64,000 nt of DNA from a phage. Positions 24,129 to 63,587 of the stretch are shown piece by piece; positions within the stretch are counted from its first letter, which is position 1; each line of letters starts with the position of its first letter. The stretch is from sequence record PZ049338.1. One strand, written 5' to 3'. Below the pieces are notes generated by a model. The model made no database searches. It was given only the letters and a program-made list of their open reading frames with translations, and was not told where the DNA came from. The translations under genes were made by a program, and so were the position numbers.

Positions 24129-24554
24129 TTGAAAAAGAGATATTACAAGAAGAAAGAAGGGTCGTTGAAAGGGACTGGATACGACTCCTTTTTAGAGAAG
24201 CATGTTCATGAGAACATAATCCCGAATGCCAGATTCCATGATAAGGGAGATAAGGTGTCTTATACCGTTTCTCATACTTACGAACCTGATTTCGTATTAG
24301 AGAAAGATGGTAAGACTTACTTAGTGGAAACTAAGGGTAGGTTCAGGGATTCAAATGAGGCTAGGAAGTACATCTTTATTAGAGAATTCTTACCAGAGAA
24401 TACTGAATTGGTATTTGTATGGGAGAAGTCCAACACCATATTCCCGTTCGCCAAAAAGAGGAAGGATGGGACTAAAGCAACTCATGAGGAATGGGCCATT
24501 AAGAACGGCTTTCGGAACTGGGTTCAAACATCATTCACAGAGGAAGTGTTATGA
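24129..24554 (+). CDS. endonuclease I-like Holliday junction resolvase (PD-(D/E)xK)
   Basis: HTYEPDFVL...YLVETKG and IREFLPE align by eye with recalled T7 gene 3 endonuclease (HTYTPDFLL...FVETKG, IREQHPE). Confidence 0.7.
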   Translation: MKKRYYKKKEGSLKGTGYDSFLEKHVHENIIPNARFHDKGDKVSYTVSHTYEPDFVLEKDGKTYLVETKGRFRDSNEARKYIFIREFLPENTELVFVWEKSNTIFPFAKKRKDGTKATHEEWAIKNGFRNWVQTSFTEEVL

Positions 24555-24970
24555 TTAAGCATATAGCTACATGGGTTAAACAAGTTGTATTTGGGGCTGG
24601 TATTGTGGCAGTCCTTGGTCTATTCCCACTAGGTTACAAATATGGGGTAGATTCTGAACACATTGCTCAACGAGCAGAGTATACCAAAGAACTTGAAACC
24701 TTAGTCAAACGTTATGACCAGACTCAAGGTATCTTATCAGCATTGGCTCAGGGTCAGCAAGTTTCATTGACCCTTTTACGCACTAAACAGGATGGAGTGA
24801 AAAGTGACGTTAATAAGTACAATCAAAGCAGTAATGCTCGTATTTCTTGTCTTGATGATGAGTGGTTGCGGGTCTACAACAACTCCATTACCGGAGATAA
24901 GCATAAATCCGGAAGCAAGGTTGATGGAAAGACCACAGGAAAGGTTAACACTGGAGATGGGAGCAAATAA
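24551..24970 (+). CDS. i-spanin (Rz-like)
   Basis: N-terminal TM (VVFGAGIVAVLGLFPLG) then charged periplasmic domain; o-spanin ORF nested out of frame. Confidence 0.6.
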   Translation: MIKHIATWVKQVVFGAGIVAVLGLFPLGYKYGVDSEHIAQRAEYTKELETLVKRYDQTQGILSALAQGQQVSLTLLRTKQDGVKSDVNKYNQSSNARISCLDDEWLRVYNNSITGDKHKSGSKVDGKTTGKVNTGDGSK

Positions 24971-25082
24971 TGGTAATGCTCTTTCTGTTATCACTGAGAA
25001 TAACATGATATGTGAAAGAGAGATTAATAAACTCACTGATTTGCAAGATTGGGTGGGGTTATTGAAACATGTGCCTAAATAA
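24804..25082 (+). CDS. o-spanin (Rz1-like outer-membrane lipoprotein)
   Basis: signal peptide plus lipobox-like LMMSGC, Pro-rich; overlaps and extends past i-spanin. Confidence 0.6.
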   Translation: MTLISTIKAVMLVFLVLMMSGCGSTTTPLPEISINPEARLMERPQERLTLEMGANNGNALSVITENNMICEREINKLTDLQDWVGLLKHVPK

Positions 25083-25087
25083 GATAT

Positions 25088-25114
25088 AGGGGAATATTAA
25101 TTTCCCCTTTTTTC
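25088..25114 (+). terminator. intrinsic terminator (AGGGGAA tattaat TTCCCCT + TTTTTT)
   Basis: read directly; end of plus-strand late block. Confidence 0.7.
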
Positions 25115-25155
25115 TTAAAAGTTTGTAAGATAATTAGAAATGTTAAGTAGAATTA

Positions 25156-25178
25156 CTCTTTATATATGTGGATTAACT
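25156..25178 (+). promoter_or_regulatory. 23-bp repeated element CTCTTTATATATGTGGATTAACT (copy A)
   Basis: identical to 47913-47935; inverted near-copy at 4270-4292. Confidence 0.45.
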
Positions 25179-25310
25179 CCACCCTATATAATAATAAAGA
25201 CTGAGGTTAATTATCAGTGAAATAATAACTAGAACCAGTGGAATCATCCAATTGTCAAGAAAATTAAGTATTGACAGTGCTATCTTGTTCATACTTTGTA
25301 ATCCACTCCT

Positions 25311-26030
25311 CTATCGTTGGGGGGGTTTAACTTTCTCGATAGCTGCTCTAAAGATTGCAGCACGGTGGAGTTTATCAGATATTTCCGGAGAACGTAACTT
25401 AGTCTTTGGAACAATAATTGAGACATAAGCACTATCAGCAGAATCGAAAGGATATTGACTAATTGCCCTAACATCTAAAGCCCTCAAACCATGAATCTTC
25501 ACAGGATATTTCTTTGTGATGTAAATGTGCTTGAAAACCTCGTCCATTCGCTCTCTCCAAGCCGGGGAGCGTATAGAACGGTGTCTACCAACACAACCTA
25601 TGGCTACACGTTCAAACCTCTCACACAGCCTCTCAAGACGTTCTAGAGACCCTTCGGAGTGCCATACAGGTACTGCCTTGCTTAGTAGGTGTTCTGGTAA
25701 CTTCGCTAGGAGCGCGTCGTTTTCTTCATCAGTGCCGCCAATAACGTCAGGTACAATAAACCACCCGATACGAGCATAAAGAGACTCAACCCACTTATAA
25801 TACTTATTCCAATGTTTATCCCAGTCAACTATCTCACCTTTACGATTCGATTTCATCCAAACAGAGAAAGCACCATTATCAAGAATCAAGTCACAATCTA
25901 ATTGAACTATACGCTTAATCTGGTCAGGGCGATGGAAAGAAACAAGGGCTCCACCTCCACGGTAGAGTGCCTTGATTAGCTCATCACCTTCACCACCCCA
26001 AATAGGGCCACCATGAAAGTGTATTGTCAT
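25311..26030 (-). CDS. hypothetical protein (239 aa), coupled to NADAR gene
   Basis: ORF track; 4-nt overlap with upstream gene. Confidence 0.55.
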   Translation of the reverse strand: MTIHFHGGPIWGGEGDELIKALYRGGGALVSFHRPDQIKRIVQLDCDLILDNGAFSVWMKSNRKGEIVDWDKHWNKYYKWVESLYARIGWFIVPDVIGGTDEENDALLAKLPEHLLSKAVPVWHSEGSLERLERLCERFERVAIGCVGRHRSIRSPAWRERMDEVFKHIYITKKYPVKIHGLRALDVRAISQYPFDSADSAYVSIIVPKTKLRSPEISDKLHRAAIFRAAIEKVKPPQR

Positions 26031-26748: not shown

Positions 26749-27256
26749 AGTAGTTTAAGTCAGCTTCAAGTAATGCGTAATGGATAACTTTCAAAAGATC
26801 TTGAAGACCATTCTTATCTTTGTGCCGGTATGCATACTTAATCATATTGCACTGTTGAAAATTTAACTGAGGATTTGCGTTGTAGAATTCAATTGGCTGA
26901 ATACGCCCACTACCTGCTTGATAGTGAGAACCACCAACCATAGTGCTTAATGAATTACCCTTAGATGCCATCGCTAATTGCTCCGTGTGGTCATGTGAAT
27001 AGTCTACTGGGGCAGTTTTATGTCCAGTAAGCATTGGTACGCAAATGTGGACTTCATTACGCTTACCCACATCAATTGCCTTTCTTTCATTACTTAATTC
27101 ATACCCTGTCATTTGGGCTAGGTTATGAAGTTGGTCAGACACTATCTCATACATCTTTCTAAAAGCTTTGGCAGATAAGGATGCTTCCTCGTATTTTCGG
27201 CTTAATACCTGAAGTTCCGCCTCAGTCTCGAAGTGATTAATCATCGTCTTCATCAT
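26687..27256 (-). CDS. hypothetical protein (189 aa), C-terminal conserved-looking SHYQAG...IQPIEFY region
   Basis: ORF track; resemblance to a phage DUF recalled only vaguely. Confidence 0.5.
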   Translation of the reverse strand: MMKTMINHFETEAELQVLSRKYEEASLSAKAFRKMYEIVSDQLHNLAQMTGYELSNERKAIDVGKRNEVHICVPMLTGHKTAPVDYSHDHTEQLAMASKGNSLSTMVGGSHYQAGSGRIQPIEFYNANPQLNFQQCNMIKYAYRHKDKNGLQDLLKVIHYALLEADLNYCDNPEEVAKFKQQAKELFGG

Positions 27257-27342
27257 CCTCAGATTTCTTAATCATAATCATCATGCCCATTAATAGTAAC
27301 ATGAAAGCCAATACAAACAAATCACTAACAAATAAAGACGGG

Positions 27343-27687
27343 TTAGTAAACATAACAAGGTTTTCCTAATCGTTTCATCTCTGAAATCATATGCTTAGTC
27401 CCTTTGGACTCACCATCCCACATAATAATCGCTTGGTCGGCGTAGAGAGCCATCTTTGCATTGCGCAAGTGACCAGCCTTTTTACCATGTATGTGCCATT
27501 CGGCTGGGAATCGTTTAACTGGAGCACGACAACGAGCAGCTATACGCTCGCCATGTTGGTCTGGCCCTCGGGCTGTACCTGATACTACTTCGGTAATAGT
27601 CCTGCGGATATCCTTAGGAATCTGATTCCATTGAACCACAAACTCCTCCCAAGTTATATCACGACTTCCGGCAATGATAGTCTTCAT
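27343..27687 (-). CDS. SLOG / DUF2493-like nucleotide-binding protein
   Basis: GSRD...SGTARGPD...FPAEW...GKKAGHLRN...WDGESKGT fits recalled family pattern. Confidence 0.5.
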   Translation of the reverse strand: MKTIIAGSRDITWEEFVVQWNQIPKDIRRTITEVVSGTARGPDQHGERIAARCRAPVKRFPAEWHIHGKKAGHLRNAKMALYADQAIIMWDGESKGTKHMISEMKRLGKPCYVY

Positions 27688-27688: not shown

Positions 27689-27868
27689 TCAGAGTCCTTC
27701 TACGGTCTTACCTATTACGAAAACCTCTTCATCTGGGAAACGAGCTAAGTAACGCTGACCTGCTTCTTCAGCAGCCTCAGTTGTTGAGTGAACACTCTCA
27801 CAGAACCATTCCCACTGACAGTAAGGGCTATCACTATATGTAGTAGCCATCAAAATAAATACCATCAT
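27689..27868 (-). CDS. small hypothetical protein (59 aa)
   Basis: start trimmed to ATGATG at 27868, 1 nt after upstream stop. Confidence 0.35.
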   Translation of the reverse strand: MMVFILMATTYSDSPYCQWEWFCESVHSTTEAAEEAGQRYLARFPDEEVFVIGKTVEGL

Positions 27869-27869
27869 A

Positions 27870-28310
27870 TTAAAACCTGCTAGATAAGTCAGCACCATGT
27901 GCCGATATACGCTTATACTTCAGCGTCATTTCATAAGTAGAGGTTGCTTTTGTATATGCAATCCACTCTACACCCAATTCCATTGCAACTTCACGCATCC
28001 AACGATAACCACCCACGAGAGCACGCCTGTTAGCGTCTGTGGAGAACGCAACTAGTACAGACATACAATCACCTACATGCATATCAACTTCTCGGTAGAA
28101 GGCCATTGAGGCCACTATATTGCCATCATCACCGAACACTACATACTCATACCGGTTCATACTTTCAATGAGTATTTTTGTATTATAGTAGAACTCGAAT
28201 GACTCTCGATGCTGGAAAAGGGGCTGACCAGCCCACACAACACCAGCAAATCTTGGAGAGAATCCTGCTGTGGGGCTGTTTGGCCCCTTAATGTATTTAT
28301 GTACAGGCAT
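27870..28310 (-). CDS. hypothetical protein (146 aa)
   Basis: ORF track. Confidence 0.5.
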   Translation of the reverse strand: MPVHKYIKGPNSPTAGFSPRFAGVVWAGQPLFQHRESFEFYYNTKILIESMNRYEYVVFGDDGNIVASMAFYREVDMHVGDCMSVLVAFSTDANRRALVGGYRWMREVAMELGVEWIAYTKATSTYEMTLKYKRISAHGADLSSRF

Positions 28311-33049: not shown

Positions 33050-33144
33050 TATTTAATATCCTTATTAATTAATCTCAATGTTGAGAGAACTGTTTATATC
33101 TCTCGCTCAGTTGTATATAGATTAGTGTAAGATAACTGAAAATC

Positions 33145-33576
33145 TTACATACTTTCTTGCATTATTTGAGAGCGACTAACACCATCAAAGTAACAAAAAT
33201 CGCCCACAATATTGCTATTAATATGGTATACTTCATTGAGGTTCTCACCTGTACGCTTGTGATAGTGATGGCAGATAGCTTTGTGAGCACAAATCAACCG
33301 ACTCATGAACGCATACACATGGCTCCTGCCGTATGTACGACCATCCACTGTAGATGATTTCGTATTCACAAACCTGTCAACAGCGTCATACTCTATCACT
33401 GGTAACATTCTTAGTGCAACAAATAGTGCATTGGTTGATGAAGGGCGGGAATGTCCCGAGTTCGCCGCCCCGTATAACACATCCTGCAACCAACCACTAA
33501 GTTCATGGAGTTCATCAAAGTTAGAAAACAGGGACTGAATACAATGATTATCTAAATGGACTGTAGGACGTGACAT
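33145..33576 (-). CDS. hypothetical His/Cys-rich protein (143 aa)
   Basis: ORF track. Confidence 0.5.
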   Translation of the reverse strand: MSRPTVHLDNHCIQSLFSNFDELHELSGWLQDVLYGAANSGHSRPSSTNALFVALRMLPVIEYDAVDRFVNTKSSTVDGRTYGRSHVYAFMSRLICAHKAICHHYHKRTGENLNEVYHINSNIVGDFCYFDGVSRSQIMQESM

Positions 33577-33584: not shown

Positions 33585-33989
33585 TTAAATCTCGAAGTGA
33601 GGGCCATCAAAACGTTTGTTCTTGTTCCAACCGTCAGTGGTTGGTGCCCAAGTACCACCCCACACAACACGAACGCCAAGTTTATCAGCGGAAGCTAACA
33701 TATGAGCAGCCATAACAACAAAGCTTTCCAGATTATTCCAATCAACAGGGTAAGGTACAATATCAATTGCATGACTATACCCATCAGATTGACGAAGGTG
33801 TTTAGAGTTCATAGTCCAAGATGAACCCTTGGCTACATATTCACGCTGCTTCTCAATAGTACGCATACCTTCTGTGATTGTCACATCGAAAGGCATATTC
33901 TTGAAAGCTTCGACACAGACAGCACGTAAGTCTGGATGAACTTGGTCAAGACGTTCTTGAGAGCGAGCACTAAGTTTAACATTACTCAT
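33585..33989 (-). CDS. endolysin, L-alanyl-D-glutamate peptidase (M15-like)
   Basis: SKHLRQSDGYSHAIDIVPY fits H..D..H zinc peptidase pattern. Confidence 0.7.
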   Translation of the reverse strand: MSNVKLSARSQERLDQVHPDLRAVCVEAFKNMPFDVTITEGMRTIEKQREYVAKGSSWTMNSKHLRQSDGYSHAIDIVPYPVDWNNLESFVVMAAHMLASADKLGVRVVWGGTWAPTTDGWNKNKRFDGPHFEI

Positions 33990-36002: not shown

Positions 36003-36062
36003 TATTCCACACCTGCAATTAATGTTACTGTATATTTACGACCACCTCTAACATCTTCAACC

Positions 36063-38684: not shown

Positions 38685-38935
38685 TTTGCTGCTCCATTAG
38701 CATTAGGGAAATAACGTTCATAATTTCTTGCGTGGTTAGTTTCCAACTTAGCCACACATTGACGACAGAATGGATACAATCCACTGTCAGAGTTCGCAGA
38801 TTCATCGAAGTGATAAACCCCACGAAGTTGTTTACAGCACTTGCAAGTGATGCACTGGCCGTAAGTTGTTCTTGCGTAATTGTTAATTAAACGCTTAACC
38901 ATGTCCATTAGGACTCCAGAGACAAAAAAGGCCAC
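38681..38935 (-). CDS. Cys-rich hypothetical protein (84 aa)
   Basis: ORF track. Confidence 0.45.
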   Translation of the reverse strand: MAFFVSGVLMDMVKRLINNYARTTYGQCITCKCCKQLRGVYHFDESANSDSGLYPFCRQCVAKLETNHARNYERYFPNANGAAK

Positions 38936-39044
38936 CCGTAGGCAGCCTTGTGTTAACCTTCACCCCAGCCCGTATTAGAATCCATCGAATTCATCATACG
39001 TCCCAGTTCTCTTCACCAGCAGTGTAACCAATTGCATTCATTCG

Positions 39045-39629: not shown

Positions 39630-39795
39630 CCGGCATTGTTTCTTTACAACACGGGCATATGTAATAGTGTGAATAGTCCTCAGTGCTTACGCGTTTCATG
39701 GGAACAAAACACCAATCACATTCAATACTTTTCACACCGTACATAATGAATACCTTATTTAAGACTCTTCTCAACTCTACGAGTAATATACTCAC
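39574..39795 (-). CDS. small Zn-ribbon protein (73 aa)
   Basis: CDWC...CPCC. Confidence 0.45.
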   Translation of the reverse strand: MSILLVELRRVLNKVFIMYGVKSIECDWCFVPMKRVSTEDYSHYYICPCCKETMPGERFDEYEYEWGDYNGQE

Positions 39796-44081: not shown

Positions 44082-44264
44082 TAACTATCCTTAGTCTTCG
44101 TCGTTGTCGTTAAAGCGGAATGGGTCGGAGCATTCAATTACCCCAGCGTCTTCGTCTAAGCGAAAGGTCATTCCTGCAATTTCAAAATCGGAGTCCATCA
44201 TGTGTTATTCCTTAACAAGAGGCCACACTTATTATAGTGACCTCTAGAGAGTATCCTTACACCG

Positions 44265-46568: not shown

Positions 46569-46635
46569 GACTTAATCCTTTTCCATGTCATTAAGCTTGC
46601 TGCGGGTATTACTTAGTGCCTTAGGTTAGATAACA

Positions 46636-47310
46636 TTACAGAGTGTCATAGTAGTCTGCGCGATTATGCAGACACCAGTCACCCGACTCAACACGGTTAC
46701 TGTCGCCTTGGTCTTCATCAATGTGATAAATCCAAGCCTTTGCGAAGGAACCATCATCCAGTTGGATTTCAACCTGCGTACGGTTATAGAAACCATTCTC
46801 AGGGTCACAGGCACTGTACCCTTCCAGCATGTCGTATGCACCAGTCAGACCTTCCAGAGGTGCTTCAAATACATCAACAACAACCTGCTTGCCAGACTTG
46901 TTAGCCTTAAGGTTCACGGAAGGGAAGTAGGAGCCACCGTAGCGATATAAATCGAACTGGTCTACAGTCACACCCTTACTTACAAATTCACCGCCGCCAC
47001 GAGCGTTTACGTGGAAATTCTGCATGTTGCGACGCAGAGAGCCATAAGTTGCGATGAATACTTTACCGTCTGAAGGAATTACTAAGTTCTTTGACATTAC
47101 TTGTCCTGTTTTAGGTTGTAGATAATATTTAACTTCGACAAATCGCCATGTGTTCTGGAGGTTCTCTGCCATTTCTTTTGCTTCTGGGTAAGTTAAGCCA
47201 CAGCCAAGCTGATAACCTTCCTCACCCTTACTCATGCGACCAATCAGTAAATAACGAACTTCATGGTCACCTGTTAGTGGTTCTTTAATTGAGAGCTTCA
47301 TCTTATACAC
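46636..47310 (-). CDS. gamma-glutamyl cyclotransferase-like (AIG2/GGCT fold) domain protein
   Basis: FIATYGSLRR ... DMLEGY ... YNRTQV fits GGCT pattern. Confidence 0.55.
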   Translation of the reverse strand: MYKMKLSIKEPLTGDHEVRYLLIGRMSKGEEGYQLGCGLTYPEAKEMAENLQNTWRFVEVKYYLQPKTGQVMSKNLVIPSDGKVFIATYGSLRRNMQNFHVNARGGGEFVSKGVTVDQFDLYRYGGSYFPSVNLKANKSGKQVVVDVFEAPLEGLTGAYDMLEGYSACDPENGFYNRTQVEIQLDDGSFAKAWIYHIDEDQGDSNRVESGDWCLHNRADYYDTL

Positions 47311-50344: not shown

Positions 50345-50389
50345 TGTTGTTACCTTTTCAGTGGGTTGTTGGAAATCAATATTATAAGA

Positions 50390-50409
50390 GGCTCCGAAGA
50401 ACCTCTGAA
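50390..50409 (-). other. conserved intergenic hairpin (RNA AGAGGUUC uucg GAGCCUCU)
   Basis: UNCG tetraloop hairpin; family member. Confidence 0.5.
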
Positions 50410-50417
50410 ATATGGAC

Positions 50418-50657: not shown

Positions 50658-50881
50658 TAGACTTCAATCCCCTTCAGACGGCAGTAGTCAGCCAGCATCA
50701 TGTGGATTGATACCGGATAAGGGATAGCCACTTTAACACCTTTTTGCTCTTCGTAAAGACCAATCTGGTAGGCACGAACTGCACGGAGCATATCAGAACC
50801 TAAATCAGTCATTGGAACTTTACGAATCACAACCGGGTTCTCCAGACGAAGAACCTTAACTTCTTTCATTGAATCATCCAT
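50657..50881 (-). CDS. hypothetical protein (74 aa)
   Basis: ORF track. Confidence 0.45.
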   Translation of the reverse strand: MDDSMKEVKVLRLENPVVIRKVPMTDLGSDMLRAVRAYQIGLYEEQKGVKVAIPYPVSIHMMLADYCRLKGIEV

Positions 50882-50896
50882 ATTCTCATTTACCTA

Positions 50897-52888: not shown

Positions 52889-52944
52889 GGATAATAATCC
52901 TCTAAGTTCATTTAAATGGGGCCGAAGCCCCTGTTTGTTAATAC

Positions 52945-54612: not shown

Positions 54613-55196
54613 TGTGGTAATTCCTTGGCTAAAAAGCGAACCAAGTGACGTGCTTCAGCAGCCACTTCGATAGCATCGTCAGAGAGGAACTTACCGATGC
54701 TCACATCCTTGTAGCGTAAGTCTGAATTGACACGCAGGAATACCCCTCCAATAACTTCAGGATACTCATTTTTGTTGAAGAACGCTTTGATGTTCTCCCA
54801 ACTAAAGCGGAAGTTGTTACAGATACGGCTGTGGGTTAACCCCTTCTTAGTTGAGCGATTTGCACGATAACTGACCCATACGAAGTTGTTTCCAATCTTC
54901 ACGAATGCAGGCTCAGGTAATTCTAGAACCAGATTCGGGTCAGTATGAGAGATGGATACGTTACGGTAATTACCATCGTCACCCATCGTCGTTCCGTGGA
55001 ATACCAGAGCATCTTCAGCTTCCTGAGAATACGCTGCACGGTCACGCTGTGCTCGCGTCATTTCACTGAAATCCAGAACAGTATTGTCATGGGTCACTGC
55101 GTCAATCTGGAAGGGCTGGACTTTACCAGCCTCATCCTTCAGACCAACGTAAGTCCCAGAGTAATACATTGAGAAATCGTCGGTAAGCATTAGCAA
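54579..55196 (-). CDS. hypothetical protein (205 aa) within amidoligase cluster
   Basis: ORF track; overlaps both neighbours. Confidence 0.5.
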   Translation of the reverse strand: MLMLTDDFSMYYSGTYVGLKDEAGKVQPFQIDAVTHDNTVLDFSEMTRAQRDRAAYSQEAEDALVFHGTTMGDDGNYRNVSISHTDPNLVLELPEPAFVKIGNNFVWVSYRANRSTKKGLTHSRICNNFRFSWENIKAFFNKNEYPEVIGGVFLRVNSDLRYKDVSIGKFLSDDAIEVAAEARHLVRFLAKELPQCQITVTTPQD

Positions 55197-55993
55197 ATCT
55201 CCATCACACGTACATATTCTTTAGCCAGAGCTTTGTCATTGTTGTTAATGACACGCTGTACTTCTTCCGGGTTGATGATTGATGCGATGCCACGGAAATC
55301 ACCACGCATCATAGCGAATGCTTTCTGAGCTTGTTCCCAAGCCCATTTGCGATTCTCTTTGTTCATAATCCAGAAGTTGGACATTACACGATATTCGATA
55401 CCGTATGGCTTGAAGCGGCAAGCACCAGCTTTACCATACAGTTCTTTTCGACGGTCATCACCGTCCAGCAGGAGGGCGGGCAGTCCCAGGAAGTAGTCAC
55501 ACATCACGCCGAGAACTTTCTGACTTTCGGACGTCACAGTAGTAACTGTATCGTAGCCAACGTGGATGTGACCACCTGCTGTACGAAGACCGGGGTCAGC
55601 AGCTTGAGGTTTAGGATTACGCATACCAGTCAGTGCGTTGTAATCAGGCTCACAGCCGAATACGAATGCATCTTTGTGGAAGCGTTCCAGTTCAGCAGCG
55701 GTGTAGATATGAGAACTGACATTCATTGCCAGTTCATGACCTACATAACCAACTGCTTCTTCACAGTATTTGATACCATCAACAATGTTCTTGTCGAAGG
55801 ATTCAAAATCACTATGCGGGTTGGTGTCGAACTCAACCAGCACGTTATCTTCCTGAATACGAACGTCTTCCGTGACTGCTTTCTTGTTGTACTTGTCCGC
55901 TCCAAGCAGACCTGAAACAGAACTGATAGCCCCTGTGCTCGAATCACGAGTGAACAACTCAGGGTCGGTAGCCAACAAAATAACATTAGACAT
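55190..55993 (-). CDS. glutamine-synthetase-fold carboxylate-amine ligase (GCS2/YbdK-like amidoligase), 267 aa
   Basis: GGHIHVGYD and YGIEYRVMS match recalled YbdK HVHVG and VEVRVMD. Confidence 0.6.
   Translation of the reverse strand: MSNVILLATDPELFTRDSSTGAISSVSGLLGADKYNKKAVTEDVRIQEDNVLVEFDTNPHSDFESFDKNIVDGIKYCEEAVGYVGHELAMNVSSHIYTAAELERFHKDAFVFGCEPDYNALTGMRNPKPQAADPGLRTAGGHIHVGYDTVTTVTSESQKVLGVMCDYFLGLPALLLDGDDRRKELYGKAGACRFKPYGIEYRVMSNFWIMNKENRKWAWEQAQKAFAMMRGDFRGIASIINPEEVQRVINNNDKALAKEYVRVMEIC
55533..55544 (-). other. strand-specific 12-mer, exact copy 4 (intragenic)
   Basis: exact 12-mer. Confidence 0.6.
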
Positions 55994-56013
55994 TTCGTTT
56001 TCCTTAAAGAGGG

Positions 56014-57150
56014 TTAATATTTAGGGTTGTAACCGTTTGCTTCTGCGAAAGCAGCCAAAGCAGCAATTGCAGCTTCAGCATCTCTCTTGTTCATGTCACT
56101 ATGAACCGGACTGTATGGGTGGTCTTGCGAACCAGATGTTGGGCCTGCAATGTAGAAACCAACAACACTGTTCCATTCTTGCACGCCTGGGATTACTTCA
56201 TCACCAGCGATACTGAAAGCATCAACCATCTTACGGTAGCGAATTGCGTTAGAATGGTCAGTATCAATATCACCAAATGTATCACGCTCACGCGCTACAT
56301 CACGGGAATTGGTTCTCCAGTTCCAGTAAATACCCTTGTAGCGGTCATCAAACACCACTTCAAGACTTTTAAAGTGCGAGTCACGATAGTAACCACGCTG
56401 ATTCTTCCACGTATCCTGCACGTAGTCGAACTTGTCAACACGCTGATGGAGGAGGTTAATCAGGCCTTGAGAACCAATGGTGTCCGGAGAGAACCAGTTA
56501 TACTCACCAGTACGAATTGGTTGATAATACTTATCGACCTTGCCCGAGAATGCACTCTTGTTAACAGTGATGTTAAAGAAGTGCGCGATGATGGCAGAAA
56601 AACGTCGCGTGTATCCACAATGCAACGCCTCTTTATAAGCGGTGACGAATCCACCATAGTTACAGAGGTTGCGGAACAATGACATTGCCAACATAACTTC
56701 GTCAGCTTTGCGCTTGCCAATGTGGAAACGAATTACGCCAAGCTTTGGATGAACCTTCACCCAAGACTTATACATTGGCAACTCTTCCAGCAATAACTTC
56801 ATTTCACTGAAATAGTTTGGGCCACAAGTTTTAAGCATGTACTTGACGCGTGATTGTTGATTTTCGATTTGGTAGAATTCCTCAGGATATTCACCATCGC
56901 CATGAGTATCCATTGGGGCAGACCACATGTGACTAATGCCATACTCAACTTCAAAATCGATGTGCTTCTGTTGGTGACCATCACGCTCACGGATATTACT
57001 GGCTTCTACCGGAGTGAAATGTTGTGTCGGGCTGTCAGGGTTAATTAGGCGCTGCTCATGCCAACGATTAACACCCATTTTACCGAAACAAATACCTTGG
57101 GCACGGAAGGATTTTCCGTCCTTAAACATTACGCGATATTGAACTGACAT
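56014..57150 (-). CDS. hypothetical protein (378 aa) within amidoligase cluster
   Basis: ORF track. Confidence 0.5.
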   Translation of the reverse strand: MSVQYRVMFKDGKSFRAQGICFGKMGVNRWHEQRLINPDSPTQHFTPVEASNIRERDGHQQKHIDFEVEYGISHMWSAPMDTHGDGEYPEEFYQIENQQSRVKYMLKTCGPNYFSEMKLLLEELPMYKSWVKVHPKLGVIRFHIGKRKADEVMLAMSLFRNLCNYGGFVTAYKEALHCGYTRRFSAIIAHFFNITVNKSAFSGKVDKYYQPIRTGEYNWFSPDTIGSQGLINLLHQRVDKFDYVQDTWKNQRGYYRDSHFKSLEVVFDDRYKGIYWNWRTNSRDVARERDTFGDIDTDHSNAIRYRKMVDAFSIAGDEVIPGVQEWNSVVGFYIAGPTSGSQDHPYSPVHSDMNKRDAEAAIAALAAFAEANGYNPKY

Positions 57151-58107
57151 TTAGTTACCTTTTACATGTTCGTTAATGAGAGCAATGCAATTGAGGAGTT
57201 CTTCTTCATCAAGCTGATGGTAGCTTGAGGAATTATTACGAATCAGGCTCTCCAGTGTCTGACTGGTTGGTGAATCTGATGGAGCACCTTGTACATCCAT
57301 GAGAATATCCTTTAGGTCTGCTTCATGACCTATACGCTCGAAGATAGGTGCTGGTTCACCTTCCCCATCGTAGGTGGTCTCCATCGTACCATCACGGCCA
57401 TAGCCGCTTGCAGTGGAACCCCACTCACCTTGCCATGCGTGTCCCAGACGACCTTCCATAATCATAATAATGTCATGGATTTCAGTATCATCTTGGAACA
57501 GTTCAGAGTCATCACTGCATTGATACCAGTAACGAACCTCACCTTTCCAATTCGCATTGCCATTAAACATCATGGAGTAGATGAAGGCTTCTTTAGGTGA
57601 GTAACCTTTGTTACGAAGGAGTTCGTACAGTCGGTTACATGCTGTGTATTCAATCAAGTTACGGAGCATCATTGCACCGACGATTGTTACCTGCATTTGC
57701 TGACCGCATAGAGGCCATGTAATACGAACGTTGGCATTACCCCAATTGCCACTATATTCAGATACCTTATCAAGGTTCTCTACAGTCACATTGCTGTAGA
57801 ATTGTGGGAATGCTTCCATGATTGCAACTAAATCAGCTTCAATCATCCCCTTAACCGCGTCAGAATTACAACGAGGCACTGGTAACCAAATTAAGAAGTG
57901 AATGTTATCTGATTCGAAGTCGGGGTTTGCGCAGTAAACACTTTCTGCATCCTCCCAATCAAAATCTTCATCATCTTCATTTACAACATGCCCTAATCCA
58001 TTAACGTAATGCTCGTTCCATTGATTGATGTAGGCCATGAAGCCAAAGCATGGGCGAGAGTGACGGAGTTCCTTCCCTTGTCCGTTAACAGTGATAGCTT
58101 GTACCAT
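57151..58107 (-). CDS. hypothetical protein (318 aa), first gene of the cluster
   Basis: ORF track; hairpin and RBS upstream. Confidence 0.5.
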   Translation of the reverse strand: MVQAITVNGQGKELRHSRPCFGFMAYINQWNEHYVNGLGHVVNEDDEDFDWEDAESVYCANPDFESDNIHFLIWLPVPRCNSDAVKGMIEADLVAIMEAFPQFYSNVTVENLDKVSEYSGNWGNANVRITWPLCGQQMQVTIVGAMMLRNLIEYTACNRLYELLRNKGYSPKEAFIYSMMFNGNANWKGEVRYWYQCSDDSELFQDDTEIHDIIMIMEGRLGHAWQGEWGSTASGYGRDGTMETTYDGEGEPAPIFERIGHEADLKDILMDVQGAPSDSPTSQTLESLIRNNSSSYHQLDEEELLNCIALINEHVKGN

Positions 58108-58169
58108 TTGTTTGTTACCTTAGAGAGTTAAAGCTTAGAGCCCTCAATTAAGAGGGCGACCTTGAATTA

Positions 58170-58541
58170 TTATTCAGTTACTTGCAGCTTGGAAGATTCC
58201 CAAAGCTGGTCTACCAGATGAACGCGCTTAACTGCGTCGTCAATGAATTGGTTGAGTTGAATACGCTGGAACTTCTCAGCCTGACGAGAAAGCAGGAGCT
58301 CTTGGTACTGAGCTTTCAGGAAGTTGCGAGTTACCACCAGAGTTTTCTGACGATGCCCAGCTTTGCCCAGACGGATTTCAGCATTAATAACACTGAGTTG
58401 GTCGCTGATTGATTTGCGTAGGACTTTCGCCGCAGACACTTCCAGATTAAAACGCTTAAGGTCTTTACGAGCGTTAGTCAGTGCTGAGCCTTCAGATTTC
58501 AGGATTGCTTCGATAGTTGCGATATTACCAATCTTATTCAT
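58170..58541 (-). CDS. hypothetical protein (123 aa)
   Basis: ORF track. Confidence 0.45.
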   Translation of the reverse strand: MNKIGNIATIEAILKSEGSALTNARKDLKRFNLEVSAAKVLRKSISDQLSVINAEIRLGKAGHRQKTLVVTRNFLKAQYQELLLSRQAEKFQRIQLNQFIDDAVKRVHLVDQLWESSKLQVTE

Positions 58542-58986
58542 TGCTTTTACCCTTAGGTTTGTGGAGTTTTAGGAAATAATGGTTACGATATTTAAACGCT
58601 TTCTTACCTTTAGCCCAATAAGGTCTATCAGTACCACTGTAGAAGTGGGTGTAGCGATACTTGGGTTTATAACCGGGCTTCATCACCTTGCTGGCTAAGA
58701 ACATTGCCTGTGCATAAGCTGCCTTCTCTTGACTCGTTTGTGGGTGAGTCTTGAAGACCTTCTTTTGCATAGTCAGCAAACCGTTGAAGTCTTTGTGTTT
58801 AAGGCGTTTTGTCCAATCGAACTGACTCTTTTGCAGAACAACTTTACAAGCAGTATCTGGGTAACGTTCATCAGTGACACGAGTCGCTATAACATCAGCA
58901 ACTAATTCCATGCCCTTGTCACCCTCGCCTCCGGCCTCCGTATATATTGTTAATGTAAGTGCTAATAAGCACGCTGCAAAGCTCAT
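58534..58986 (-). CDS. SleB-like cell-wall hydrolase with signal peptide
   Basis: N-terminal hydrophobic leader; TEAGGEG...VIATRV...YPDT...VVLQKSQF fits recalled SleB/CwlJ hydrolase pattern. Confidence 0.55.
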   Translation of the reverse strand: MSFAACLLALTLTIYTEAGGEGDKGMELVADVIATRVTDERYPDTACKVVLQKSQFDWTKRLKHKDFNGLLTMQKKVFKTHPQTSQEKAAYAQAMFLASKVMKPGYKPKYRYTHFYSGTDRPYWAKGKKAFKYRNHYFLKLHKPKGKSNE

Positions 58987-59018
58987 TGGGGATTGCTCTC
59001 CTAGTGAGGTTAGTTAAT

Positions 59019-59037
59019 GGCTCTCGTAAGAACCCTT
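59019..59037 (-). other. conserved intergenic hairpin (GGCTCTCGTAAGAACCCTT family)
   Basis: family member. Confidence 0.45.
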
Positions 59038-59047
59038 AGTAACTTCG

Positions 59048-59311
59048 CTACGAAGCAGTTATTTCAACTGATTTAAATACCTTCTCAACAGGTAGGTTGT
59101 GGGCCATATTTCGGGCTTCACCTGTTTCGAGATTAACAACTTTCATGTACTCTTTACCACGGCAAACACCACCGAGTAGCATATATACACGGTGCAATGG
59201 GCACCCTTCGAGGGCAAATACAGAGCCCATATGTAACTCACCAACAGTGATAGTTGTTGGATTAAGGTTAGTGGTAATTTTAACCTTTGTCATTTTCGAC
59301 AATCTCCACAC
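59048..59311 (-). CDS. hypothetical protein (87 aa)
   Basis: ORF track. Confidence 0.45.
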   Translation of the reverse strand: MWRLSKMTKVKITTNLNPTTITVGELHMGSVFALEGCPLHRVYMLLGGVCRGKEYMKVVNLETGEARNMAHNLPVEKVFKSVEITAS

Positions 59312-59759
59312 GAGGACAGTATTTATCTTTATTGCTGCGATACATCACAACAATCCAGTTTGAATCACGACGCTCTTTCTTACGTCGTTTCTTTTCAGCA
59401 CGAGTTTCATATGTGCCAGTTCGGTAGTCACGGTATATTCCACGAAGGTAGTAGAATAACCAACCAACACCAAATGATACACCAGCCAAAGCAGCAAAAG
59501 ATAAGGCACCAAGAGCAGGGGCAGCGAACCATGTCCACCAATTGAATGACAAAATATTCTCATGTCCAAGGAGAGAGCCACCAACCATTGACAGTGCAGC
59601 GTACAATACTGCAATGAGACCTGATAGCATCACAAAATGAAATACTGTCCGCCAGAAGTATTCGCAGAAGTTGCTCATGTTATCCCAATGATAACTGGAA
59701 AGGCTTGACATTTTTTTGTTAAACTTGTGCAGCCAACCGTTCTTATTAACCTTAATCAT
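59280..59759 (-). CDS. membrane protein (2-3 predicted TM segments)
   Basis: hydrophobic stretches VFHFVMLSGLIAVLYAALSMVGG and WFAAPALGALSFAALAGVSFGVGWLFYY. Confidence 0.5.
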   Translation of the reverse strand: MIKVNKNGWLHKFNKKMSSLSSYHWDNMSNFCEYFWRTVFHFVMLSGLIAVLYAALSMVGGSLLGHENILSFNWWTWFAAPALGALSFAALAGVSFGVGWLFYYLRGIYRDYRTGTYETRAEKKRRKKERRDSNWIVVMYRSNKDKYCPRVEIVENDKG

Positions 59760-60025
59760 TACGCATCCCCGATATGTTTACATTCAACTTTAACACGGAC
59801 AACCTGAGTATCAGCCAGTGGTGCGCTGACATTACCAGTCTCGATGTTAGTCAGGTGTACGCGGTGGTATCCCGGAAGAGCATTAATACTAACATTTGAG
59901 GAGTTGGCTACATCACCAACTAGGTAAAGAGTGTCGCCATTAACAAAACGAACAACTTCACCGGGTTTTGCTTGACAAAGACCAATAACTTTTGGCATTG
60001 GTACTTTTGATTTTGTCACTTTCAT
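59759..60025 (-). CDS. hypothetical protein (88 aa)
   Basis: ORF track. Confidence 0.45.
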   Translation of the reverse strand: MKVTKSKVPMPKVIGLCQAKPGEVVRFVNGDTLYLVGDVANSSNVSINALPGYHRVHLTNIETGNVSAPLADTQVVRVKVECKHIGDA

Positions 60026-60327
60026 TTATGTAACCTCAGGAATACATGTAACACAGTGGATGCACGGTTAGTAACTGAATTAACCGAACGGTTTAGCTTC
60101 TTTGCAATCCAATCGCGAGGACGAATACCAGCCCACTTGCGAATGAAGTCATCATCCTTGTCAGTGTAAGGTTGACGCTGTTTTGCACGGGAGATTTTGA
60201 ATCGTGAGCAGGCACCAATGATAACCGTCACAGTAGTACCCATCTTTTCAGCCACTTCTTCAACTGAATACTTCTTAATCAAACGTTCTAAACGCTTGAT
60301 GTTCTTATTTGTCCAAGTAAATTGCAT
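60022..60327 (-). CDS. small basic protein, possible HTH regulator (101 aa)
   Basis: AGGAGG SD; motif and hairpin upstream. Confidence 0.5.
   Translation of the reverse strand: MQFTWTNKNIKRLERLIKKYSVEEVAEKMGTTVTVIIGACSRFKISRAKQRQPYTDKDDDFIRKWAGIRPRDWIAKKLNRSVNSVTNRASTVLHVFLRLHK
60227..60238 (-). other. strand-specific 12-mer, exact copy 5 (intragenic)
   Basis: exact 12-mer. Confidence 0.6.
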
Positions 60328-60350
60328 ATGAACCTCCTAAGTATTTAATA

Positions 60351-60370
60351 AAGGGCTCCGTAGAACCCTT
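60351..60370 (-). other. conserved intergenic hairpin (RNA AAGGGUUC uacg GAGCCCUU)
   Basis: 8-bp stem with UACG tetraloop, then RBS. Confidence 0.5.
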
Positions 60371-60375
60371 GATAA

Positions 60376-60453
60376 TTACTCAGCATCAACAGTGAGTGAA
60401 ATGCCGAATGCGATTAGGGCAAGAACTACAGCCGCTATTGCATACCAATCCAT
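60376..60453 (-). CDS. micro-ORF, 25-aa hydrophobic peptide (MDWYAIAAVVLALIAFGISLTVDAE)
   Basis: Not in ORF track; strong AAGGAG SD 5 nt upstream of ATG. Confidence 0.3.
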   Translation of the reverse strand: MDWYAIAAVVLALIAFGISLTVDAE

Positions 60454-60597
60454 AATCACTCCTTATTCCATTTAACATTAAATGAGATAAGGCACGCCGC
60501 TGCCAGTGCAGTTTCAACAACAGCGATCACATGATTACCAACAGTCACATCGTATATCGCAAATCCCAACCAGAATGCTGTAAGGTACAGATATAGT

Positions 60598-61350
60598 TTA
60601 CGACTGGATAATGCTTTCTTGAGCCAGTTCATCTTTCACCTGTTTAAGTGTAAATGTATTGTCGTCACAATCAATACCAATAGGGCCGATAATACGGTAT
60701 TTAGTATTGCGAGTTTCAACAAAGAAAGTACCAACCTTCTCAGAGATATTTACTACACGGGAGGTACTGATTGACAACCCATCACGGAAAGGGTGATTTC
60801 CGTGAGTGTGGGTATCGCTCCAGATTCGACCAGTCATGTACCAGTTGCTATCATTGGACTTGTAAATGATAGCAGATGACAGTTTGGCGTCGAATTGTGG
60901 AATTGGTAATGGGACATAACCTTCACGCAGTATCGGATTTTGTTCATCCGGCATTTGAGTGAAAGGCTTCATCTCAAACATTATTTCAAAGTCACGAGCC
61001 CATTGGCGAATCCGTTTTGGATTTAAACCATTGACACGTTTGAAGTAACCCTGCTGATGTTCAGCACTGATTAATTCATATGACAAATCCAAATCCGTAC
61101 GATGAACAGTGGAACACATCATCATAAGGTATTCATGACGACCACACCACACGTAAAGAAGATGTCCAATCTCCTCTTTAGTGAAATCTGTCGCTTCCGC
61201 CAGACGGTCAGTGATACCAAGCGCCAGTGGTTCAGGGAAACGCTTGTAGAAAAGGATTGGGAACTTCTCAATAAGTTCCGGCATACGACGCTTATAGAAA
61301 TCGTACTGAACAGGGGTAACAGGGCGAAGTTTTACGCGTTGAGTTGTCAT
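60598..61350 (-). CDS. ProQ/FinO-domain-like RNA-binding protein with C-terminal extension
   Basis: LIEKFPILFYKRFPEPLALGI...LLYVWCGRHEYL...DLD resembles recalled ProQ/FinO N-terminal pattern. Confidence 0.5.
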   Translation of the reverse strand: MTTQRVKLRPVTPVQYDFYKRRMPELIEKFPILFYKRFPEPLALGITDRLAEATDFTKEEIGHLLYVWCGRHEYLMMMCSTVHRTDLDLSYELISAEHQQGYFKRVNGLNPKRIRQWARDFEIMFEMKPFTQMPDEQNPILREGYVPLPIPQFDAKLSSAIIYKSNDSNWYMTGRIWSDTHTHGNHPFRDGLSISTSRVVNISEKVGTFFVETRNTKYRIIGPIGIDCDDNTFTLKQVKDELAQESIIQS

Positions 61351-61613
61351 CTATTTGCCTCACATTTAATTACTTCGTTTATTTCTTCAGCCACACTCTT
61401 TGCCTCTTTATACGAGGTTAGTAAAGAGTTCCAGTAATCGTCACGGTATTCGTGAACAGTTAATGAACTAAGGCGCTCTTTGTAATACTTAGCGCGCTTT
61501 ATTGCATCACGTCCAGTTTCTATCATGTGACGTGTGTTTTTAAGTCTTTTATTTCTGACGAGATTCTTCGTCATCCATAAATTTACGCTTCTTGTGTTCA
61601 TAATGAACCTCAA
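61347..61613 (-). CDS. hypothetical protein (88 aa)
   Basis: ORF track. Confidence 0.45.
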   Translation of the reverse strand: MRFIMNTRSVNLWMTKNLVRNKRLKNTRHMIETGRDAIKRAKYYKERLSSLTVHEYRDDYWNSLLTSYKEAKSVAEEINEVIKCEANR

Positions 61614-61757
61614 TTGCGATGATTGTCACAACTGCAACAGCAGCGAGAGCGTATTCAATCCACCAGATATCAGCTAGGCTTGACATAGATGAAACCCTCA
61701 TAGGCGGTGTAGATGAACTTACGACCGAGCAGTGTGCCTACAAGCACGTACTTTTGT

Positions 61758-61946
61758 TTAGTGGAGTTGGACACTACGGCCCCCCTGATATGGTGAGGAG
61801 TTAGGATACCAGAACATGTTCTTACTGTTTGCAATCATACCGAATCCGGTAAGACCCATCAGTTGGTCACACAATGCTTGAGCGATTGATTGAGGCTTGG
61901 TGGTAGATTCACTAACCTTGAAACTGACTTTAGGCTCTTTGTACAT
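61758..61946 (-). CDS. small hypothetical protein (62 aa)
   Basis: ORF track. Confidence 0.4.
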   Translation of the reverse strand: MYKEPKVSFKVSESTTKPQSIAQALCDQLMGLTGFGMIANSKNMFWYPNSSPYQGGRSVQLH

Positions 61947-62164
61947 TACAAACCCCCATGTCTACATTTAACAAGAATGCCGTCAATGATGATGTAGTGT
62001 GAATGGTAAACCATTTCACGAGGTATATCACCATGTTCGCTGTTCCACTGGATAAAGTTCATCCGTTCCCAATCAATATATTGGGACTTCGCTTGAGCAA
62101 TTACTTCTTCCAGAGTGACTTCACCATAAGGACTCATTGACTTCATCATTTCACAAACTGACAT
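61946..62164 (-). CDS. hypothetical protein (about 73 aa)
   Basis: start trimmed to ATG 62164, 1 nt after upstream stop. Confidence 0.4.
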   Translation of the reverse strand: MSVCEMMKSMSPYGEVTLEEVIAQAKSQYIDWERMNFIQWNSEHGDIPREMVYHSHYIIIDGILVKCRHGGL

Positions 62165-62165
62165 A

Positions 62166-62477
62166 TCAACTCCTGTCAAAGTCGAGAACAACACTACCGT
62201 TCTTCTCAATCTCAGCCATAACTTTATTGTACTCATTCACTGTTCGAACGAGTGCAGCCTTCGGGTTGGCTTGCATGGCAATACCCATGACAACGCCTTG
62301 AACTTGAGGGTCAGTCACCCAAGTATTAACGATTGCTGATGCACAACCAACAATCTTAGGAATCACGCGTGGTTTACGCTTTTCAGTGCGAGCACTATCA
62401 CACTCGATAAGGTAAGTCATTATCAGTGCTTCAAGGGCTTCCTCATACTGAAAGAGTTTTTCATCTTGAACAATCAT
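62166..62477 (-). CDS. hypothetical protein (103 aa)
   Basis: ORF track. Confidence 0.45.
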   Translation of the reverse strand: MIVQDEKLFQYEEALEALIMTYLIECDSARTEKRKPRVIPKIVGCASAIVNTWVTDPQVQGVVMGIAMQANPKAALVRTVNEYNKVMAEIEKNGSVVLDFDRS

Positions 62478-62696
62478 TAGAAGTCCTTAAAATAGGAGGC
62501 GGGGACGAGCCGCCTTTACCCTATGAGTTAAGTTTGCATGTAAGACCTAACAATCGGATGCCTTCAGCGGAATAAGCGTTATGCGTATCCTGCACTAAAC
62601 TCCCGCCCCCTTAGTGGGCTGGGTGTATAAAGGGTAACGCCCTTATGGGCTAGTTACATGAATGTTAGTTTGATAGGAGATCTGACGTCCTATCTC

Positions 62697-62720
62697 AAAG
62701 GGCTCTCAGAAGAACCCTTT
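62697..62720 (-). other. conserved hairpin (AAAGGGCTCTCAGAAGAACCCTTT) in 250-bp intergenic region
   Basis: 10-bp stem; family member. Confidence 0.45.
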
Positions 62721-62728
62721 ACGATAGT

Positions 62729-62977
62729 TTACAGATGCAGCATGTACGTGTGCAGTGCATCGTGAGCCATCTCACGAGTTGGATAAGGCATAGACCAAAG
62801 TCCAGCTTCATCACTGTACACATAAGCACACTCATTACTTACCGGGTCACGCAGTTTGGTAATCAGTGGGTCAACATGCTCAACCACTATTGCACCGTGT
62901 GATGCTGCTTCTTGGAGGAGGTTTGCAGTATTACTTGTAACCCTCACACCTCCGAAGTATTGAAGATGTCTTGCCAT
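62729..62977 (-). CDS. hypothetical protein (82 aa)
   Basis: ORF track. Confidence 0.45.
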   Translation of the reverse strand: MARHLQYFGGVRVTSNTANLLQEAASHGAIVVEHVDPLITKLRDPVSNECAYVYSDEAGLWSMPYPTREMAHDALHTYMLHL

Positions 62978-63315
62978 TATGAGAATAAACCTCCTCGACT
63001 GAATTTAGGTTTTGGTGGTTCAACCGACTTCTTCATTGTTACGAGTGAGTTCAACCCCTTCTTAATAGCTTCAGATATTTCAGCGTATATCTTTGCATCA
63101 AGTAGGATGAAATCCCCAACAGGCTTGCCACCAGATAGTACACTCTGGATGGTTTCCTCACCAAAGGTAAACTTTGGCCCGAACCCTCCGAAGAAGTGGA
63201 CTGTACCAGCCAATTCGTCACGAGAAACAATGCTCATTTCGATGTGAGTAACACCCGGCACTGAATCAAACTGACAGCGAATCTTAACAGATGGAAAACT
63301 CAGTACACTAATCAT
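62977..63315 (-). CDS. hypothetical protein (112 aa)
   Basis: ORF track. Confidence 0.45.
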   Translation of the reverse strand: MISVLSFPSVKIRCQFDSVPGVTHIEMSIVSRDELAGTVHFFGGFGPKFTFGEETIQSVLSGGKPVGDFILLDAKIYAEISEAIKKGLNSLVTMKKSVEPPKPKFSRGGLFS

Positions 63316-63587
63316 TGTTTCTTACCCGGAAGAAGTTTGTAGAGGAAATCCACCCAAAGTTTACCGAAGCAAATTCCAGTGAACACACCCAAAACAGCGA
63401 CAAGGCCTAGGGGCCATAAGAAAATCATCACAGTAGTAAACGTTACATCTGGATGACCTTTCTTCTCACGACTTCTGAACATATCAGAGCCTAGTTGGTC
63501 AGCCAGACGTACCGCACCGATTGTGGCTACAATTCCTATTAGGTAAATGGCAACTATAAGGATGAGGTAATCAGAAAAGCTGTTCAT
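63312..63587 (-). CDS. small two-TM membrane protein (holin-like candidate)
   Basis: two hydrophobic segments in 91 aa; function speculative. Confidence 0.45.
   Translation of the reverse strand: MNSFSDYLILIVAIYLIGIVATIGAVRLADQLGSDMFRSREKKGHPDVTFTTVMIFLWPLGLVAVLGVFTGICFGKLWVDFLYKLLPGKKQ

Follow-up and report, generated by a model that had tools for sequence, protein, structure and literature searches.

The lysis genes of T7 (gp3.5, 17.5 and 18.5-18.7) and of T4 (e, t and pseT.3-pseT.2) are dispersed. The same holds for Privateer, a C3 podophage of the 7-11/phiEco32 type, in which the spanin genes come right after the last structural gene, the endopeptidase endolysin gene is roughly 9-12 kb away, and the Center for Phage Technology could not reliably identify a holin among several proteins with transmembrane domains (TMDs) (PMC7881722). 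In phiEco32, the lysis genes are split over the two strands, with the holin-endolysin pair phi32_16/17 on the plus strand among the tail genes and the spanin gene phi32_39 on the minus strand. Here we describe the lysis genes in a stretch of phage DNA of 64,000 nucleotides (nt) (sequence record PZ049338.1; "the window" means this whole stretch). A first-pass annotation had proposed lysis functions scattered over both strands: nested spanin genes, an M15-type endolysin, a secreted SleB-like hydrolase and a holin-like protein with two TMDs. We found that all four open reading frames (ORFs) are present where it placed them, and that a spanin pair (plus strand) and an M15 endolysin gene (minus strand) do lie apart. 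Export of the SleB-like protein and a holin role for the two-TMD protein were not supported.

The window is from a Grimontviridae podophage related to 7-11, as judged by megablast. It is ~97% identical to Salmonella phage PKM.Hi.22.6 and phage PKM.Lu.22.1 (Grimontviridae), and ~74% identical over parts to the Moazamivirus phages 7-11, SE131 and SeKF_80. Hi226 and Lu221 are published plasmid-dependent podophages (PMC10782986), and nearly all genes in their GenBank records are named "hypothetical". The window has the 7-11/phiEco32 plan, with a rightward structural block (~6250-25082) followed by a long leftward block, and its gene order is common to 7-11 and SeKF_80. The dispersed layout of the lysis genes is the same as in Privateer, and 7-11 gp29-gp30 and gp50 are direct counterparts of the window genes. 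In contrast to Privateer, the window belongs to the Hi226/Lu221-like lineage, which is a separate genus-level group, and in the public records of this group the lysis genes are called "hypothetical" and the o-spanin gene is unannotated or truncated. It seems likely that this phage uses an ordinary three-step Gram-negative lysis pathway, its genes scattered as is typical of 7-11/phiEco32-type podophages. The genes considered are:

24551..24970, plus strand: inner-membrane spanin (i-spanin), 139 amino acids (aa)
24804..25082, plus strand: outer-membrane spanin (o-spanin), 92-aa precursor
33585..33989, minus strand: M15C L-alanyl-D-glutamate endopeptidase endolysin, 134 aa, leaderless, homolog of 7-11 gp50
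58534..58986, minus strand, early region: SleB/CwlJ-type (Hydrolase_2) peptidoglycan hydrolase homolog, leaderless
59280..59759, minus strand: phrog_944 membrane protein with 2-3 TMDs and a basic C-terminal tail, two genes upstream of the SleB-like gene
63312..63587, minus strand, early region: 91-aa orphan with two TMDs

The region 24551-25082 encodes a two-component i-/o-spanin pair, with the outer-membrane role predicted from sequence features. The i-spanin matches phrog_8821 ("Rz-like spanin", 3e-27) and has one N-terminal TMD (residues ~9-30, Kyte-Doolittle 2.28 in our transmembrane (TM) scan) that is kept in 4/4 phages. The o-spanin matches phrog_1267 (1e-12) and has the lipobox LMMSGC with Cys22 and no Asp at position +2 relative to this Cys. 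Its GTG start is preceded by GGAG at 6 nt. Across the window, PKM.Hi.22.6, SeKF_80 and 7-11, the lipobox VLM[MI]SGC, followed by G or N, and the C-terminal half of the protein are invariant; at 61% identity, the frame remains open in the relatives. Both spanins were assigned by PHROG matches; neither had a match in Pfam. The o-spanin gene is at 24804-25082 in the window, with corresponding loci in L001 (33792-34070), L005 (8141-8419) and L003 (30392-30670). In the records of the relatives it is unannotated (7-11), a 41-aa fragment (PKM.Hi.22.6) or truncated (SeKF_80).

The pair had been described as nested. We found that the o-spanin gene, which is in the +1 frame, has its start within the i-spanin gene but continues for 112 nt after the i-spanin stop. 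The pair is thus of the overlapped type and is neither nested nor embedded. This corresponds to the class that the spanin classification of Summer 2007 and Kongari 2018 reportedly calls "overlapped", as in P2 lysB/lysC. As in lambda Rz/Rz1, the i-spanin has an N-terminal TMD and the o-spanin is a lipoprotein in the +1 frame that starts inside the i-spanin gene. Unlike the lambda pair, this one is not embedded, and its transcription partner is not a holin or an endolysin gene but an endonuclease I gene. That gene (24129-24554) had been included at the start of the range of lysis functions; it encodes endonuclease I (PF05367, 9e-10), is no lysis gene, and shares a transcript with the spanins.

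The M15 assignment held. The protein encoded at 33585-33989 is a soluble M15C endopeptidase with predicted L-Ala-D-Glu specificity and, from its sequence, no signal or signal-anchor-release (SAR) sequence. It matches phrog_465 ("endolysin", 3e-48) and, in the PDB, the L-alanyl-D-glutamate endopeptidases 8q2g and 23ri (~1e-21), ChiX (2.5e-16) and the T5 endolysin 2mxz (2e-15). Its metal ligands, H64, D76 and H131, line up with those of 8q2g, ChiX and 2mxz. The N-terminus, MSNVKLSARSQERLDQ, is hydrophilic, and the TM scan found no TM segment in the protein. Homologs carry the annotation endolysin in >1000 phages, and 7-11 gp50 is annotated "endolysin".

Like T5 endolysin EndoT5 (2mxz), 8q2g, 23ri and Serratia ChiX (5opz), the M15 protein is a single-domain enzyme of ~135 aa with H/D/H ligands and no signal sequence. 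It differs from these M15C enzymes by an insertion of 5 residues after the first His and before the Asp ligand, and by having no adjacent holin gene; its neighbors are a phosphoesterase gene and DNA-metabolism genes. M15C endopeptidases of the T5 type are holin-dependent in their own systems. By analogy, the M15 enzyme would also depend on a holin.

We found that the SleB-like protein has the catalytic domain that had been proposed. It matches Pfam PF07486 at 4e-16 (59.9 bits; cut-off 27). With an AlphaFold2 (AF2) model (pLDDT 83.7), the top Foldseek matches were 4f55 and 4fet (probability 1.00, TM-score 0.57-0.66), and there was no significant Foldseek match besides the SleB catalytic domain. 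The motif Y15-T-E17-A-G-G-E21 is invariant in 12 homologs and aligns with YGESRGE of SleB, the catalytic Glu being E17.

The signal peptide that had been assigned to this protein is helix 1 of the enzyme. Residues 3-18 form a confident helix in the AF2 model, residue 12 aligns with residue 21 of the 128-aa SleB catalytic-domain crystal construct (phmmer), and residues 1-16 are helix 1 of the catalytic domain, abutting Glu17. That is, the hydrophobic run is helix 1 with Glu17 directly after it, and cleavage there would remove Glu17. The N-terminal sequence, MS[FW]xxC[WL]LALTLxIYTEAGGEG, is near-invariant in the 12 homologs with the same start position in all. There is no basic n-region before the hydrophobic run in the protein or in the 12 homologs, and the run is 13-15 residues long, under the TM threshold in a 17-residue window. 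Since the N-terminus is part of the catalytic fold, the SleB-like protein is, by sequence and model, leaderless, and it lacks the features of a Sec-exported or SAR protein. The hydrophobicity of the N-terminus explains why it had been called a signal peptide.

Comparison with other phages agrees with this assignment. The SleB-like protein shares the catalytic domain and the Y-x-E-A/S-x-G-E motif with Vequintavirinae CB7_83 and CR3_087 and with T5.083. Those proteins carry a cleavable Sec signal peptide, whereas the window protein, the Grimontviridae proteins and phi32_117 do not. In a joint alignment, the T5-family homolog (DT571/2 gp123 = T5.083) has a genuine 19-aa signal peptide, MKAALLLVAALTFSFSSQA, then S, upstream of helix 1. 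The Grimontviridae homologs also begin at helix 1, and phiEco32 phi32_117 starts 8 residues later than the window protein, without residues 1-8. The SleB-like gene is additional to a dedicated endolysin in T5-like phages and phiEco32, and the combination of an M15 endolysin with a separate SleB-like gene recurs in T5-like phages. The SleB-like protein is thus an accessory that several phage lineages carry on top of a dedicated endolysin.

The temporal classes of these genes were transferred from 7-11, where transcription has been mapped. There are two kinetic classes in 7-11. Early transcription starts from two sigma-70 promoters at the right end and runs leftward, and late transcription depends on the phage extracytoplasmic function (ECF) sigma factor gp47 and on the motif GTAAtg-N16-aCTA; P1, P8, P16, P22, P28, P48 and P69 were validated (PMC8948821), P28 by primer extension (PMC8948821). 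We retained late sites that had the exact core GTAA-N2-N16-ACTA, were co-oriented with the genes and were homologously placed. The exact motif occurs 8 times in the window, always on the local coding strand: at 5907, 12440, 17546 and 23869 on the plus strand, and at 46614, 44235, 39665 and 33123 on the minus strand. Seven of the 8 sites have positional homologs in 7-11/SeKF_80, including the validated P1, P8, P22, P28, P48 and P69. In alignments of the P28 and P48 regions with the relatives, the boxes are invariant and the spacers have diverged. Looser searches were uninformative: with one mismatch allowed, the count (9) was not above that in shuffled sequences (4.8 ± 2.3), and a relaxed scan with two mismatches and variable spacing gave mostly intragenic noise. 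The promoters and hairpins that bear on the lysis genes are:

4463-4434, minus strand: sigma-70 early promoter, leftward, TTGACA-18-TATAAT (12/12)
4351-4322, minus strand: sigma-70 early promoter, leftward, TTGACA-18-TAGAAT (11/12); the two match the two 7-11 right-end promoters
23869..23894, plus strand: late promoter, equivalent of 7-11 P28 by alignment, GTAAGG-N16-ACTA
24086..24105, plus strand: terminator-like hairpin with an 8-bp stem, UUCG loop and T-run (centroid -13.6 kcal/mol, z = -2.2)
25088..25108, no assigned strand: bidirectional terminator-like hairpin between convergent late units (-14.6 kcal/mol, z = -3.0)
33123..33148, minus strand: late promoter, equivalent of 7-11 P48, upstream of an SSB-like gene and downstream of the M15 gene
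38928..38949, minus strand: terminator-like hairpin between the P69 equivalent and the DNA polymerase and M15 genes
39665..39690, minus strand: late promoter, equivalent of 7-11 P69; both the site and its downstream flank resemble the site that 7-11 has within gp70, upstream of gp69
44235..44260, minus strand: late-promoter consensus site between genes; 7-11 and SeKF_80 have a homolog at this position
46614..46639, minus strand: late promoter with perfect consensus, 46 nt before the primase/helicase gene; no other leftward late site is further upstream

Based on the correspondence with P28, P69 and P48, we infer that the spanin and M15 genes are on separate transcripts that belong to one late regulon under the phage ECF sigma factor. 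In 7-11, the genes after P28 are gp28-gp29 (endonuclease)-gp30 (spanin), and gp50 (M15) is flanked by P69 and P48. The earlier suggestion that lysis timing would depend on separately regulated transcripts is therefore weakened: the transcripts are separate, and the regulon is the same. In addition, 7-11 gene 47 (the sigma factor) is downstream of gp50 and needs early read-through, so the M15 mRNA probably precedes late transcription; by analogy, the M15 gene is probably also reached by early read-through in this phage. There is no late motif on the minus strand from 46640 to 64000, which places the SleB-like gene and the two-TMD ORF in the early unit. A leaderless endolysin can do no harm as long as the membrane is intact, and lysis timing should thus rest on the holin and not on transcription of the endolysin, as in established holin-endolysin biology. 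As in T7 and T4, the lysis genes are in separate transcription units with the endolysin among DNA-metabolism genes, and there is an endonuclease I homolog as in T7. In contrast to T7 and T4, the enzymes are of other classes, and late transcription would use a phage ECF sigma factor, not a phage RNA polymerase (T7) or the T4 late sigma factor.

Two of the hairpins are between late promoters and lysis genes (24086-24105 and 38928-38949), so expression of the spanins and of M15 would depend on read-through. The hairpin at 24086-24105 is between the gp28-like ORF and the endonuclease-spanin genes and is found at the same position in 7-11 and SeKF_80 with changes in the stem. The 7-11 record annotates a bidirectional terminator at the site matching 25088-25108. 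Between each of these two promoters, the P28 and P69 equivalents, and its main downstream genes come one or two tiny ORFs, followed by a strong hairpin. This layout suggests control by attenuation or antitermination.

We identified no holin by sequence within the window. The product of 63312-63587 does have two TM segments (Kyte-Doolittle 2.8 and 2.5 in the TM scan), as had been noted when it was proposed as a holin. It has no match in PHROG and only a sub-threshold match to DUF2165 in Pfam. The ORF is present in PKM.Hi.22.6 and Lu.22.1 only and is absent from SeKF_80 and 7-11 (Moazamivirus). Among 5.8 billion proteins there were five close homologs, all unnamed, and none of the weak matches in a few other phage records is labeled holin. 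The ORF is within a tightly packed early operon of small ORFs, ~30 kb from the M15 gene and ~5 kb from the SleB-like gene. With no holin-family match, a restricted lineage, an early position and no linkage to a lysin gene, this candidate was not supported.

Other candidates were rejected as well. The phrog_944 protein is 80% identical to phiEco32 phi32_92 and only ~31% identical to its 7-11/SeKF_80 ortholog, which points to recent exchange with Kuravirus phages; phi32_92 coexists with a separate holin in phiEco32, and the family is also found in T4-like phages. The 39-aa ORF at 25173-25292 matches Phage_holin_5_2 at 0.0085 (16.8 bits; cut-off 29.2) and phrog_1129 at 0.034. These weak matches span no more than one TM stretch of 22 residues, and Moazamivirus lacks the ORF; we therefore treated them as non-specific. 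Two late-region ORFs with TM segments, 27237-27353 (38 aa) and 27689-27898 (69 aa), have no family support and are not conserved. Homologs of the phiEco32 holin, endolysin and SLT (phi32_16, 17 and 22) were found in none of the window, PKM.Hi.22.6, SeKF_80 and 7-11. The SeKF_80 homolog of the giant virion protein (19856-23866) is automatically labeled endolysin; no lytic domain was detectable in the window protein.

Relative to PKM.Hi.22.6, the window lacks a segment of ~9 kb (13407-22366 in PKM.Hi.22.6) that encodes a long capsid paralog, tail fiber and tail genes, a 62-aa TM protein (phrog_402) and an 83-aa virion protein. Of the small late-block TM proteins, this lineage and Moazamivirus have only two in common, the charged-tail protein of 62-63 aa (phrog_402) and the 83-aa virion protein, and both are encoded in the missing segment. 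The phrog_402 family is widespread in Felixounavirus and T4-like phages. The junction is at 13375-13381 in the window, in frame, with a 7-nt microhomology (TGACTGG), and the ORF across it (12581-13546) fuses capsid residues 1 to ~266 to the last ~55 residues of a tail protein. The absence of this segment reflects either a defective deletion genome or an artefact.

Under the ordinary pathway, the M15 endolysin would be made from a long leftward unit driven by the late promoters at 46614, 44235 and 39665; read-through that starts at the sigma-70 early promoters would probably contribute as well. The enzyme would build up harmlessly in the cytoplasm. The spanin pair and endonuclease I would be transcribed from the P28-type promoter at 23869 through the conserved hairpin, which probably keeps their level low. 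A holin that is not recognizable by its sequence would set the time of lysis. The SleB-like enzyme would reach the wall only after the membrane is breached, and would be at most a second, holin-dependent lysin that cleaves glycan strands. The two-TMD ORF at 63312 would encode an early orphan membrane protein and not the holin.

Several points weigh against this pathway. The temporal classes come from 7-11, at ~74% DNA identity, where the kinetics were mapped. The hairpins before the M15 gene (38928-38949) and before the spanin genes (24086-24105) may alter the real expression levels. The Pfam M15_4 (PF13539) score of the M15 protein is 20.9, below the curated cut-off of 25, and it is the PHROG and PDB matches that carry the M15 assignment. 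Residues 1-15 of the SleB-like protein form a hydrophobic stretch (Kyte-Doolittle ~1.9), and there is a small chance that helix 1 associates transiently with the membrane or acts as a weak SAR-like tether; the short run, Asn13 in most homologs and the lack of positive charge argue against a tether. Finally, holins are too diverse for sequence to prove that there is none, and an early membrane protein could still be the holin.

The proposal of the first-pass annotation was that the SleB-like protein has a signal peptide and is a Sec-exported second lysin, or a virion or superinfection hydrolase, and that 63312-63587 encodes the holin. This now seems highly improbable. The hydrophobic N-terminus favors it, as do a TEA/GG junction that resembles an AXA site and the signal peptides of the SleB-like lysins of Vequintavirinae and T5-like phages (PMC7344957 for the Vequintavirinae type), and the 91-aa product has two strong TM segments and a holin-like size. 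However, cleavage next to the catalytic Glu17 would destroy the enzyme. The near-invariant N-terminus without a basic n-region, the confident helix, the SleB-only match of the model and the phiEco32 homolog that does without residues 1-8 all contradict export. A role in the virion had no support, as the gene is in the early leftward unit, outside the structural block. The 91-aa ORF, with five close homologs and none in Moazamivirus, is in an operon of small early genes with no family match and no adjacent lysin gene. A second alternative is rather unlikely: the phrog_944 and SleB-like proteins could form a second, early pair of membrane protein and hydrolase for wall remodeling, superinfection exclusion or back-up lysis, with helix 1 perhaps a weak SAR tether that holds Glu17 inactive. 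In both the window and SeKF_80, the two genes share a strand and lie two ORFs apart. Like class I holins, phrog_944 has a strongly basic C-terminal tail together with 2-3 TMDs. Helix 1 contains many Ala, Thr, Ser and Cys residues and the catalytic Glu comes right after it, which is the logic of SAR endolysins such as P1 Lyz and R21. In phiEco32, however, the two genes are ~7 kb apart and the phage has its own late holin-endolysin pair, phrog_944 occurs also in T4-like Klebsiella phages, and the features of helix 1 that argue against a tether apply here too, its run of 13-15 residues being below the TM threshold.

The location of the SleB-like gene raises another alternative. Directly downstream of it is a phiEco32-type module (49157-58541, minus strand) that encodes a COOH-NH2 ligase, Amidoligase_2, a class-II glutamine amidotransferase (GATase) and a RimK-like ATP-grasp protein, and the SleB-like stop overlaps the first gene of this colinear block by 8 nt. 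The protein might then not be a lysin, and might act in the cytoplasm with the amidoligase/GATase/ATP-grasp module, for example on muropeptide-like or peptide-modified substrates. Its leaderless form, its early region and its retention in phages that already have an endolysin fit this idea, which we nevertheless consider improbable: the adjacency is not kept in phiEco32, SeKF_80 has two extra genes between the SleB-like gene and the module, we found no link in the literature between the amidoligase module and cell-wall hydrolases, and the catalytic Glu and fold are those of an enzyme that cleaves glycan strands, a periplasmic substrate. More broadly, T5-like and rV5-like phages export their SleB-type enzymes, and it is possible, though unlikely, that the leaderless early SleB-type proteins of Grimontviridae and Kuravirus have a role beyond lysis at the end of the cycle, whether in wall remodeling or exclusion assisted by phrog_944 or in the cytoplasm linked to the amidoligase module, and, separately, that the true holin of the family is the 62-aa phrog_402 protein encoded among the head and tail genes.

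Other features were noted in the window. Next to the spanin genes are:

23941..24078, plus strand: 45-aa ORF, homolog of 7-11 gp28 (phrog_35703)
24129..24554, plus strand: endonuclease I of the T7-gp3 type (phrog_945, 5e-32)

From 5051 to 5200 there is a 14-nt tandem repeat, AACTATCAAAGGAT, in 10.9 copies. It is in an ORF-poor divergent control region, with the leftward sigma-70 early promoters on one side and the first late promoter on the other, and may consist of iterons or protein-binding sites. An early ORF of 134 aa at 502-906 (minus strand; phrog_31994) has a lipoprotein-type N-terminus, MKRLLLALFISAC, and may encode an exclusion or envelope protein. The DNA polymerase is a single ORF of 614 aa in the window (36470-38314) and is split by an insert of ~0.6 kb in PKM.Hi.22.6, and 36004-36474 of the window has no counterpart in PKM.Hi.22.6.

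Our results indicate that the arrangement of these genes is ordinary. Earlier work on this group of prolate podophages had already reported dispersed lysis genes with no identifiable holin. A single feature is mildly unusual: the SleB-like proteins of Grimontviridae and Kuravirus are leaderless and in the early region. The finding has little biological weight. Its value is the annotation of genes that are labeled "hypothetical" in Hi226 and Lu221: the o-spanin was missed or truncated in every relative examined, and the SleB-like gene is routinely labeled "endolysin" by automatic annotation despite its leaderless form and, here, its early location. For engineering of plasmid-dependent phages, the holin and the leaderless SleB-like enzyme are the two points that matter.

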